Source of the DNA: Clostridia bacterium
GTDB lineage: Bacteria > Bacillota > Clostridia > Christensenellales > UBA1242
Reading direction: 5' to 3'
Length of the DNA: 64,000 nucleotides
NCBI GenBank assembly: GCA_045637805.1
Contig: JAZUAE010000018.1
Span: forward strand, 9,703 to 73,702
Below are positions 51,822-53,456 of the stretch, piece by piece. The translations under genes were made by a program, and so were the position numbers. The notes under the pieces were generated by a model, which saw only the letters and a program-made list of their open reading frames with translations, was not told the origin of the DNA and ran no database searches. Position 1 is the stretch's first letter, and each line of letters starts with the position of its first letter.

Positions 51822-51858
51822 ATGTAAAAATAAAAGCATTCTCTTATAGAATGCTTTT
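51822..51858 (-). terminator. intrinsic terminator at the end of the ImmA gene
   Basis: AAAAGCATTCT-ATAAG-AGAATGCTTTT, then ATTTTT on the minus strand. The stop codon lies in the loop. Confidence 0.55.
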
Positions 51859-52500
51859 ATTGATATTAATGACTTGCTCTTTTGATTTATTGTATTCATC
51901 TATAAATGACTGAAATTGCTTATTTATTCGTTTGTTCTTCACGTCTTTCAAAATGATTCTTGATATGTACTTATTATATCTATATTTCGCAGCTGAATAT
52001 GTTACTCCACAAATTGATTGTAGTTCTTCAATTGTCGAAATATTACATTTTGTAAGCACATTTAATGGCATCAATATTTGAGCAGCAAATAAATTTGCTT
52101 CTATCTCTCTTGTTGGCATATCGTTACATACAAAGTGATTTAAAATAATATGACCAATTTCGTGGGCTATCGTAAATCGTTGAGCGCCAATTTTAATTGT
52201 ATCATCATATAAAATCATATATTGATTATTGTAATAAATCGTGAACCCCCAATCTGTATATATTATCTCCTCGTAAATTTGAGATATTGTTTCATTTAAT
52301 TGTGAGTATGGAATGACAACCCAATTATTTTGCCTTGCGACTGTTACAACATCAACAGGTAAAACAGAGATTTTGTTTTGAATTAAAAAGTCCTTTGCTA
52401 ATTTTTCAACTGTTTTCTTTAATTCTTCAGATAAAACTATATCGTAATTATCAATATTTATTCTTGTTCTACCTATCAATTTAATATCATTCTTAATCAT
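51844..52500 (-). CDS. ImmA/IrrE-family zinc metallopeptidase
   Basis: FTIAHEIGHIILNH HExxH in an M78/DUF955-like context. 8-nt overlap with the upstream XRE gene. Confidence 0.85.
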   Translation of the reverse strand: MIKNDIKLIGRTRINIDNYDIVLSEELKKTVEKLAKDFLIQNKISVLPVDVVTVARQNNWVVIPYSQLNETISQIYEEIIYTDWGFTIYYNNQYMILYDDTIKIGAQRFTIAHEIGHIILNHFVCNDMPTREIEANLFAAQILMPLNVLTKCNISTIEELQSICGVTYSAAKYRYNKYISRIILKDVKNKRINKQFQSFIDEYNKSKEQVININKSIL

Positions 52501-52837
52501 CTTTTTTACACATGGTTTCAGCCAAGGATGTTAACGCTTGTAATTGTTCATCATTCAATACAAATTTTTTATGAGTTCCATTTCTACCTAACATCGTTAC
52601 CACATTTTGACTATCATTGTCATATGGTTTATCTACAAACCACTCCATTGGCGTATCAAATATATTAGATAGCTTTTTAATTGTTACTATATCTGGAATT
52701 CTTTGGTCTGTTTCCCACATCGCCACCGTAGATTTTGAAAGTCCTACTATATCCGCCAATGAAGATTGAGTTATATGTTTCTCTTTTCTAAGAGCCTTTA
52801 TTCTTTGTCCAATTGTTTTATTTTTCAAATCAATCAT
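52493..52837 (-). CDS. XRE-family HTH repressor
   Basis: IGQRIKALRKEKHITQSSLADIVGLSKSTVAMWETDQRIP. Start moved to ATG 52837 (GAGAGGTG SD). Confidence 0.85.
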   Translation of the reverse strand: MIDLKNKTIGQRIKALRKEKHITQSSLADIVGLSKSTVAMWETDQRIPDIVTIKKLSNIFDTPMEWFVDKPYDNDSQNVVTMLGRNGTHKKFVLNDEQLQALTSLAETMCKKDD

Positions 52838-52901
52838 GTTTACACCTCTCAACTTAATACTATCATAAATACAACGTTAAATCTACTAATTTATTAAAAA
52901 A

Positions 52902-52970
52902 GTTCACAAATAGTGAGAAAATAATTGATTTTTACTTTTATTTTTGATAAAATGTTCACAGTTAGTGAAC
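52902..52970. promoter_or_regulatory. divergent control region: two GTTCAC-N5-GTGA(A/G)(C/A) operators and a plus-strand extended -10 promoter
   Basis: O1 is GTTCACAAATAGTGAGA at 52902-52918. O2 is the perfect palindrome GTTCACAGTTAGTGAAC at 52954-52970. TTGATT (52925-52930), 17 nt, then TGATAAAAT (52945-52953). O2 lies at the predicted transcription start. Confidence 0.55.
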
Positions 52971-52984
52971 TTTTGGAGGTGCTT

Positions 52985-53371
52985 ATGCTAAAAGAAGAAT
53001 TAAAAACCTTATTAGAAGATTACTGGTACGATAATCAATATTTAAAAGAAAAAGCTAAAGAAGTTGAATCTATGGATTTACTTATCCGCTCTGGTAAGGG
53101 GTCAGATTTTATTGTGAGCACAAAACGATATGAAGAGTCTGAAATGACTAAAATCATCGAAAAGAAAAGATATATTGAAGGTCTTTTTCAAACACTAAAT
53201 CAACCATATAGGACAATAATGTATATGAAATATGTCACTTTTCTAACATTTGATCAAATTGCCGATCGCATGAATTATTCTACAAAACGTATTTACCAAC
53301 TACATAGCGAAGGTATGTCGATCCTTTTACAATCAATAAATGCCCCATCTCAAAATATTAGCACAGATTAG
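52985..53371 (+). CDS. ArpU-family / sigma-70 region-4-like regulator
   Basis: 128 aa from ATG 52985 (GGAGG SD). C-terminal HTH YRTIMYMKYVTFLTFDQIADRMNYSTKRIYQLHSEGMSILLQ. Confidence 0.6.
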   Translation: MLKEELKTLLEDYWYDNQYLKEKAKEVESMDLLIRSGKGSDFIVSTKRYEESEMTKIIEKKRYIEGLFQTLNQPYRTIMYMKYVTFLTFDQIADRMNYSTKRIYQLHSEGMSILLQSINAPSQNISTD

Positions 53372-53416
53372 CACAAATTAGCACAAGTTAGAAGGCATTA
53401 GAAAATCTAGGCATTA
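53357..53416. repeat. tandem 10-bp repeats ATTAGCACA(G/A) x3 plus three degenerate units
   Basis: attagcacag attagcacaa attagcacaa gttagaaggc attagaaaat ctaggcatta. Spans the regulator's stop codon and the RHS upstream region. Confidence 0.7.
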
Positions 53417-53456
53417 AAATGAAATTGTAATCAATAAATAAAAGGAGATAAAAAAA

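Follow-up and report, generated by a model that had tools for sequence, protein, structure and literature searches.

The ImmR/ImmA pair of the integrative and conjugative element (ICE) ICEBs1 and the cI-like/MpaR pair of the Listeria monocin share one arrangement: the gene of an XRE-type repressor and, after it in the same transcript, that of a DUF955/M78 metalloprotease form a pair that stands divergent from the promoter of the silenced genes. ImmR and the monocin repressor are autoregulated, and the cI-like/MpaR pair of the monocin, a tailocin, controls a bacteriocin that part of the population releases when stressed (PMC6872733). A likewise organized cassette is described here in a stretch of 64,000 nucleotides from a Clostridia bacterium (assembly GCA_045637805.1, contig JAZUAE010000018.1, positions 9,703 to 73,702 of the forward strand), whose full length is called the window and whose positions are used throughout. 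The Listeria monocin locus is its closest functional precedent. However, the predicted output is neither excision, conjugation or virions nor a phage-tail particle, but an Ltr-type transcriptional activator that would act on the gene of an RHS polymorphic toxin and probably on an operon with fibre-like genes. Unlike the monocin locus, this cassette is not accompanied by tail, sheath, baseplate or endolysin genes.

A second precedent is found in the late transcription of phages. The Ltr superfamily, which comprises RinA, ArpU, LtrA, LtrB/DUF1492 and LtrC (PMC3753634), and LlgA (PMC7397523) are known from a cascade that runs from cI through Ltr to the late genes (PMC3753634, PMC7397523). The sites bound by Ltr activators are direct repeats just distal to the gene of the activator itself, and these proteins suffice for activation of the late promoter, that of terS (PMC3753634). 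The activator of the window shares with them its small size, the DUF1492/Sigma70_r4 signature, the C-terminal helix-turn-helix (HTH) domain joined to a variable N-terminal domain, the direct repeats distal to its gene with a predicted activated promoter, and the predicted control of the gene by a cI/XRE-type repressor. By contrast, five repeats in strict 10-bp phase are found here and three 7-nt repeats in the earlier work (PMC3753634), and the predicted target is the RHS gene or the membrane protein gene of the second operon instead of terS. The activator clade is, moreover, almost absent from viral contig collections.

Comparable two-tier logic, in which a repressor that responds to stress governs a small, dedicated activator or sigma-like factor, and this in turn serves a toxin or bacteriocin promoter with repeated boxes, is known from the PrtR/PrtN/P-box system of the pyocins and from LexA/UviA of BCN5. 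Clostridial toxin loci offer a further parallel, as TcdR is found there with the holin-like TcdE, and large toxins without a signal peptide are paired with a phage-derived membrane protein. The components of the present locus are, however, unrelated in sequence to PrtR/PrtN, LexA/UviA and TcdR, and its payload is an RHS toxin. In place of RecA-stimulated self-cleavage, a separate metalloprotease would inactivate the repressor.

For this locus we favor, with a probability of roughly 0.65, a self-contained, phage-derived cascade that governs an RHS polymorphic toxin instead of the production of virions. The gene identities, the operator and promoter architecture and the retention of the linkage outside phages are established by sequence and comparison. 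In the proposed off state, the XRE-family repressor would bind two operators, O1 at the start site of the activator gene and O2 probably at its own -35 element, and keep the activator gene off. On a signal, likely DNA damage or another stress, the co-translated M78 zinc peptidase would cleave the repressor, by analogy with ImmA, MpaR and CapP. The Ltr-type activator of 128 residues would then be made, bind five TTAG(C/A)A repeats and activate a promoter with a good -10 and no -35 element, leading to expression of the RHS toxin and a 62-residue immunity protein; read-through into the RHS gene from the upstream promoter may also occur. In relatives, a second copy of this promoter would drive a convergent operon, operon ii, and the copy belonging to the window would lie just beyond position 64000. 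For an RHS protein with no signal peptide or known trafficking domain, release or targeting by the products of operon ii may be considered, albeit speculatively. Stress- or damage-inducible expression of the toxin is what we infer from these steps. Judged by sequence, the novelty lies in the payload and in the completeness of the retained circuit, with an early repressor/anti-repressor pair and a late activator wired to an RHS toxin, and probably to a membrane/fibre operon, in the absence of virion genes. A literature search returned no paper that connects RHS toxins with ImmA-type switches or with Ltr activators.

The comparative evidence draws on about 104 clusters of activator homologues, all from uncultured Clostridia, and on 55 retrieved loci (labelled L001 and onward), in which the genes of the cassette were called with locally built hidden Markov models. 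For the census, sequences were collapsed at 95% identity to 28 non-redundant lineages with at least 38% identity to the window activator; the counts for L028 and L042 were corrected by inspection.

The switch itself is encoded on the minus strand. The repressor gene (52493..52837, ATG at 52837, stop at 52493-52495) is preceded by the ribosome-binding site GAGAGGTG and encodes an XRE-family protein of 114 residues that matches Pfam HTH_3 (E 3.9e-16), the PADLOC capH profile over nearly its full length (E 9.6e-10) and repressor families of PHROG. The following gene (51844..52500, ATG at 52500, stop at 51844-51846) overlaps it by the 8 nt ATGATTAA and encodes an M78 zinc metallopeptidase of the ImmA/IrrE/CapP type with 218 residues (Pfam PF06114, E 9.5e-13). 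Its HEIGH motif is intact and, together with the downstream EANLFAAQILMP, aligns with the active-site region of CapP. The bicistron ends at an intrinsic terminator (51829..51861, minus strand) with a 14-bp stem, a 5-nt loop and a T-rich tail, and the next gene, which encodes a protein of 961 residues, has its own TGaTATAAT upstream. In sequence and architecture, the pair thus described fits the ImmR/ImmA-type modules.

The promoter of the activator gene is read from the plus strand, divergent from the pair, at 52925..52953. It consists of TTGATT (52925-52930), a spacer of 17 nt and the extended -10 element TGaTAAAAT (52945-52953), and a -35, a 17-nt spacer and an extended -10 precede the activator gene in all diverged lineages examined. 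Because this AT-rich region shows no excess of promoter-like hexamers (7 found, 14 expected), the case for the promoter rests on this conservation across lineages. The predicted operator O1 is a perfect GTTCAC-N5-GTGAAC palindrome at 52954..52970, over the predicted transcription start (about -6 to +11), and is the sole perfect match in the 64 kb, where 0.00 would be expected. The predicted operator O2, the imperfect copy GTTCACAAATAGTGAGA at 52902..52918, lies exactly 52 bp upstream of O1; with two mismatches allowed, the 64 kb contain 4 matches where 1.5 would be expected, a mild enrichment only.

The window and L001 share 82% identity in the activator and only 49% in the XRE protein; in both, O2 and O1 are placed at -83 and -31 from the ATG, and in L001 both copies have been altered alike, to GTTTAC-N5-GTGGAA. 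Since the two copies hold their position and change in concert, O1 and O2 are predicted to be repressor binding sites. Other lineages carry two to four copies of a lineage-specific motif that flanks or overlaps the activator promoter, namely TATCAnAAtTGTAGAA in L005 and L012, TCTCAC-N5-GTTA in L009, L023 and L034, and TATTTACAnnTTGT in L031, which supports co-variation of the operators with the repressor lineage. A tentative XRE promoter (TTGTGA, 18 nt, TAGATT; 52880..52909, minus strand) was read from the sequence, falls below the scan threshold and aligns with TTGTAA, 18 nt, TAGATT in L001. O2 probably overlaps the -35 element of this weak but conserved promoter, which would give autoregulation. 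A preliminary description of the window had named the repressor and the ImmA/IrrE-type peptidase with their 8-nt overlap, the divergent extended -10 promoter, the perfect palindrome over the start region and a second, imperfect copy 52 bp upstream; each of these was recovered at its stated position, the pair with Pfam matches, the promoter in all lineages examined and the perfect palindrome as unique in the 64 kb.

The gene under this promoter (52985..53371, plus strand) encodes the activator. Pfam returns DUF1492 at 25.7 bits (cut-off 21.5) and Sigma70_r4 at 27.5 bits (cut-off 24.1), and PHROG 36, a family of transcriptional regulators, is matched as well. In its AlphaFold2 model, with a predicted local distance difference test (pLDDT) score of 92, a hairpin of two long helices is joined to a three-helix HTH domain, which in a fold search superposes on sigma region-4 structures within 1-2 Å. 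The profile matches of the 128 residues are to region 3/4 only and the model contains no region-2 fold, so that a bona fide sigma-70 factor is ruled out by the absence of region 2. On these grounds, the activator is classified by sequence as a DUF1492 (LtrB-type) member of the Ltr superfamily of phage late activators. Across 42 sequences, seven of the 11 residues of its recognition helix, NYSTKRIYQLH, are invariant and three more are conserved at 90% or above; this near-invariance agrees with the invariant DNA motif described next.

Five direct repeats in 10-bp phase (TTAGCA three times, TTAGAA twice; 53358..53403, plus strand) begin within the last codons of the activator gene and are the predicted activator sites. 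Eleven nucleotides after the last repeat stands TAAAAT (53415..53420, plus strand), the -10 element of the predicted activator-dependent RHS promoter, for which no -35 is present at canonical spacing. TATAAT, TATACT or TAAAAT is found 11 nt past the last repeat in the window and in L017, and a -10-like element is similarly placed elsewhere. The array is kept in nearly all loci, even where it is fully intergenic and non-coding (L009, L017, L023). Repeats and -10 element together (53358-53420) are predicted to form an activator-dependent promoter for the RHS gene. As no terminator or RNA structure was found between the activator gene and the RHS gene (z = 0.19), read-through into RHS and positive feed-forward are likely. 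The plus-strand unit that had been outlined beforehand, a sigma-like gene followed by the RHS gene and a small downstream gene, is therefore retained, but not the ArpU label: among the Pfam, NCBIfam and PHROG matches of the activator there is no ArpU model (whose presence in each library is unchecked), and DUF1492/LtrB takes its place. Likewise, the suggestion that the activator promoter drives the whole unit is amended: more than a simple operon, the unit would be a cascade, in which the RHS gene has a predicted activator-type promoter of its own.

In AT-rich DNA, the palindromes and repeats could also be chance or non-regulatory sequences, with the RHS gene constitutively expressed by read-through and the XRE protein regulating only itself. 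The lack of enrichment of promoter-like hexamers and the mild enrichment of the two-mismatch palindrome would be compatible with this explanation, which is nevertheless extremely improbable given the expectation for the perfect palindrome and the concerted changes at fixed positions in L001. The activator motif speaks against chance as well: a scan for the TTAGCA array gives three overlapping matches, against 0.16 expected, and none elsewhere in the 64-kb window, and across 0.88 Mb of related loci the array stands at about 60 promoter positions with almost no off-target matches.

The payload is a protein of 2047 residues with RHS/YD repeats (53457..59600, plus strand; Pfam RHS_repeat, PF05593). 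Its core-end domain (residues 1756-1837) matches TIGR03696 at 67.7 bits (cut-off 32.5), and the usual DPxGL reads SDENG here; matches in the PDB (Rhs, Tse5, TcC) are confined to this core-end plug region. The C-terminal domain (residues 1838-2047, positions 58968-59597) contains 19% glycine, 14% alanine and 13% valine and has 25 small-xxx-small motifs, which give it glycine-zipper character. Among lineages, the C-termini differ (23-43% identity) and the cores remain alignable, and orphan C-terminal modules follow the RHS gene in L007, L009, L033, L034 and L037. A two-transmembrane protein of 62 residues is encoded next (59609..59797, plus strand). Homologues of it, 44-45% identical, are encoded downstream of the RHS gene in two loci: in L034, whose toxin has the closest C-terminus (43% identity) and where the distance is 12 nt, and in L040, whose C-terminus is only 23% identical; a cognate immunity protein is its probable role.

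In its composition, the C-terminal domain resembles glycine-zipper membrane toxins (PMC12744356, PMC11630599). With Tse5, EsxX and the ionophoric CdiA-CT, it shares a hydrophobic, glycine-zipper-rich C-terminus and a small membrane immunity protein (probable here), and with Tse5 also the Rhs core-end domain (PMC12744356, PMC11630599). In contrast to these toxins, no PAAR/VgrG, LXG/WXG, CdiB or Sec signal accompanies the RHS protein, and its N-terminus is an unclassified beta-sandwich followed by a long helix. Pfam and NCBIfam searches of residues 1-420 returned no match at all, with no signal peptide and no PAAR, LXG/WXG or TcdB/TcaC-type domain recognized, and the N-termini of all family members are hydrophilic, none having a signal peptide, a PAAR or an LXG domain. 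The N-terminal model, of low confidence (seven homologues only, mean pLDDT 63), places the beta-sandwich at residues 1-135 and the helix, 77 residues long, at 319-395. Fold matches of this part to a transforming growth factor (TGF)-beta propeptide and to beta-sandwiches like those of carbohydrate-binding modules had low TM-scores and were not used for function.

From the surroundings of the cassette, the XRE/M78 pair could be assigned to a phage, to an island or to the unit of activator and RHS gene. In the census, the RHS gene lies directly downstream of the activator in 21 of 27 lineages and operon ii in two of 27, and RHS is found anywhere in the locus in 24 of 28. An XRE gene stands divergent upstream of the activator in 20 of 25 lineages and is followed by an M78 gene in 15 of these 20. 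The M78 gene abuts genes for DegV, a short-chain dehydrogenase and a nucleoside hydrolase in L009 and L023 (in L023 also an ABC transporter), and the cassette of L015 is placed beside a GerA operon, thymidine kinase and rubrerythrin. None of these three cassettes is accompanied by a homologue of terminase, portal, capsid or tail-tube proteins. Based on this comparative genomics, the cassette is regarded as a mobile unit of its own and not as the switch of a neighbouring prophage or island. Conservation of the whole cassette, with its housekeeping flanks, the co-varying operators and a motif that precedes RHS in almost every locus and not the terS of the resident prophage, also supports the earlier proposal that the switch serves a sigma-like regulator and an RHS toxin instead of a phage or ICE lytic programme.

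An alternative is a prophage or phage-like element in the strict sense, in which the XRE/M78 pair and the activator are a lysogeny switch and a late activator, the RHS gene is a late-expressed moron and the module does run a lytic programme. The Ltr family is phage-derived (PMC3753634), and the window does hold a prophage (~10187-42700, minus strand). In L054 and L052, a distant relative of the activator (25-31% identity) precedes terminase and portal-sized genes, which were identified by reading the sequences, without a profile search; such an arrangement would be expected for an ancestral phage role of the activator. Weak tail-fibre matches to PHROG on the products of operon ii and a tRNA-like sequence that borders L026 fit this explanation as well. 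However, the cassettes of L009, L023 and L015 directly adjoin housekeeping genes and lack virion genes beside them, and the 2.9 million viral contigs of IMG/VR yielded only two relatives of the activator, both distant. The terS region of the prophage, moreover, has no Ltr motif but repeats and a candidate activator of its own: upstream of terS (32978-33466) lie at least six direct repeats AATCAAAAA (33480-33640, minus strand), to which a late activator encoded by the prophage itself probably binds, and a gene of 108 codons with a weak Sigma70_r4/DUF722 match is located at 35630-35956. Considering also that the fibre-like protein of operon ii and the prophage tail fibre have only a low-complexity shaft in common, this explanation is unlikely. 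Dual service of the activator, to the resident prophage as well, was considered separately and rejected, as the TTAGCA array occurs nowhere else in the window and the terS repeats differ.

Operon ii, the second part of the proposed regulon, converges on the cassette (60433..64000, minus strand) and contains five genes, encoding in transcription order a protein of 214 residues with three transmembrane segments and a coiled coil, a fibre-like protein of 307 residues, a protein of 153 residues, a glycine-rich protein of 362 residues and a protein of 151 residues. The first gene runs from 63416 past the window end at 64000, and its full-length product (P0123) matches the cut open reading frame. 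Homologous operons in relatives encode a membrane/coiled-coil protein of about 210 residues with three transmembrane segments, along with one fibre-like, one small and one glycine-rich protein, and the same Ltr-type promoter opens them in L009, L023, L026, L027, L036-38, L041 and L043. In L043, the activator is followed by the membrane protein, the fibre protein, a protein of 177 residues and the glycine-rich protein, and a convergent RHS gene has its own copy of the same promoter. Since the tail-fibre-like genes of the window belong to the same operon as that under the Ltr-type promoter of the relatives, they are predicted to be part of the activator regulon and not of a second prophage, with operon ii as the second activator target.

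Family searches add little to the functions of these genes. The matches above threshold are Gly_rich_2 on the 362-residue protein and Alanine_zipper on the 307-residue protein; tail-fibre-type matches to PHROG are significant on both and on a 338-residue homologue in L017, and none assigns a function. For operon ii, the immunity protein and the lipoprotein encoded between them (see below), most family matches are absent or below threshold (Phage_holin_3_6, E 0.011; Gp53-like_C, E 0.001), and in the family of the 214-residue membrane protein, which spans more than 150 clusters, no member has a Pfam domain or a functional name. Placement of the 307-residue protein on the prophage baseplate was considered and dismissed: only its low-complexity Ala/Asn shaft, and not its N-terminus, aligns with the prophage tail fibre. 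The glycine-rich protein shows no similarity.

Downstream of the operon ii promoters, the relatives share a conserved 5' leader, with GGAGG near the predicted transcript start and an invariant AGTCGAAA 15-20 nt later. It was observed in L009 (~18440-18480), in L026 (~19720-19760, minus strand) and in L027, L036, L037, L038, L041 and L043. The frame is not conserved, and the leader is probably an RNA or DNA element, not a coding one.

A bolder proposal is that the regulon as a whole constitutes an undescribed, tail-less, bacteriocin-like weapon of Gram-positive gut Clostridia, made of the RHS protein, the immunity protein, the three-transmembrane/coiled-coil protein and the tail-fibre-like proteins. 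In it, an RHS toxin with no known secretion signal would be released by a phage-derived, holin-like membrane protein and then targeted or presented by phage-derived fibre proteins, and the system as a whole would fire in a subpopulation through XRE/M78. This proposal is doubtful at present. If true, it would represent a new route of RHS export and delivery independent of type VI secretion (its system abbreviated T6SS), the type VII secretion system and Sec, and a complete early-late circuit of a phage kept after the loss of the virion genes.

The CapH/CapP systems raise a different alternative. Between the prophage and the XRE/M78 pair lies a six-gene island (43138-51769, minus strand), and the pair could be a CapH/CapP-type regulator of this neighbour, or a stand-alone XRE-COG2856 toxin-antitoxin, with its proximity to the activator and the RHS gene being incidental. 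Defence operons of diverse kinds are known to be under the control of CapH/CapP pairs (10.1101/2022.04.27.489752). They share with the present pair the best profile matches (PADLOC capH and capP) and the arrangement of a divergent operon under a small HTH repressor with a C-terminal extension. The adjacent island genes have BrxP, SspA and GajB matches, and island and cassette occur together in four lineages. The capP match (E 3.2e-19) covers profile positions 3-153 of 242 only, and the closest PDB relative, CapP 7t5t (E 4e-5), is matched over its residues 75-165, thus in the peptidase part alone. The unit regulated here would be a transcription activator and a toxin, not an anti-phage system. 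Against control of the island, both operators are located in the intergenic region of the activator promoter, O1 over its predicted start and O2 upstream of its -35. Furthermore, most lineages with XRE/M78 divergent from the activator have no island, relatives that do have one show an additional small HTH gene ahead of the island, and a strong terminator and a separate promoter stand between the M78 gene and the island. Control of the island by the pair, or its independence as a toxin-antitoxin, is accordingly very unlikely.

The island itself encodes a LexA equivalog (TIGR00498, 153 bits), a 65-residue zinc-ribbon open reading frame (43141-43335), an SspA/DndA-like cysteine desulfurase, a BrxP-like phosphoadenosine phosphosulfate reductase with a 4Fe-4S tail (PADLOC BrxP, E 2e-75), a GajB-like UvrD helicase and the 961-residue protein, which has no family match. 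The block is also present in L001/2, L005-8, L012-14 and L029/30, and four lineages have it together with the cassette. A possible role for it is sulfur-based DNA modification or defence, in which case the composition of the island would be an undescribed one.

Several observations weigh against the proposed cascade from XRE/M78 through the activator to RHS. All relatives are uncultured metagenome-assembled genomes, and all functions are deduced from sequence. Five lineages have no divergent XRE gene at all (for example, L020 and L038), and five XRE-bearing ones (L015, L035, L036, L037, L039/40) have no adjacent M78 gene, so that protease-mediated induction is either not universal or acts in trans. 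The missing peptidase suggests another or a trans-acting route of induction, as described for Listeria phi10403S and MpaR. The C-terminal region of CapP, described as a GAF domain (10.1101/2022.04.27.489752), is missing from the 218-residue M78 protein in both the PADLOC capP profile match and the PDB comparison. Activity of CapP is enhanced by single-stranded DNA (10.1101/2022.04.27.489752), and because that region is missing, the inducing signal cannot be deduced from CapP. The -10 element and start site of the RHS promoter are predictions, and the operon ii promoter of this genome is beyond position 64000, outside the window. The holin-like and tail-fibre assignments within operon ii are below or near thresholds. 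Finally, the cassette of the window has a prophage to one side and phage-like fibre genes to the other, and four lineages share the adjacent LexA/BrxP-like island, which leaves room for some link to a mobile element. In a spore-former lineage, a lipoprotein gene of 683 codons follows the XRE gene in place of M78 (L015/L016, 7296-9347, minus strand).

RHS toxins are well studied in Gram-negative bacteria, where they are delivered by the T6SS or Tc systems, and the regulation and export of those from Gram-positive anaerobes without Sec, LXG or PAAR signals are largely unexplained. The family described here is conserved across gut and rumen metagenomes, where it counts 28 or more non-redundant lineages and over 100 protein clusters, and the proposed model would link stress sensing to the production of an interbacterial toxin in abundant, uncultured gut Clostridia. 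Its control logic can be read from the sequence as operators, a repressor/protease pair, a late-type activator and a promoter with repeat boxes. The promoter motif can serve as a search key for the activator regulon, and operon ii offers a candidate apparatus for release and targeting. More generally, the locus would illustrate how an early-to-late circuit of a phage can be retained and rewired to a non-viral payload.

Other features of the window complete the picture. After the immunity gene, a lipoprotein of 164 residues with an LTGC lipobox is encoded at 59885..60379 (plus strand); it has no family match, none of the 55 related loci contains a homologue, and its membership of the system is uncertain. 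The prophage encodes two serine recombinases, a holin, a tail fibre, a tape-measure protein, a major head protein, a portal, terL, terS, methyltransferases, a primase and a helicase. No endolysin was found among the prophage open reading frames tested, and when 44 kb of the window were compared with 50,697 phage records by megablast, no known phage genome was matched. At the prophage end, the large serine recombinase genes stand in tandem (528 and 493 residues, PHROG 95; 10187-13223, minus strand) after the holin gene (13421-13738). Between terS and terL, a ParB-like/DNA-methyltransferase fusion and a second methyltransferase are encoded at 28941-30326 and 31638-32981 (minus strand). The perfect palindrome TTACAACACACGTAGTGTGTTGTAA (~42975-43000), situated in non-coding DNA that separates the LexA block from the early genes of the prophage, is flanked by two terminator-like hairpins and may be an operator or the remnant of an attachment site.

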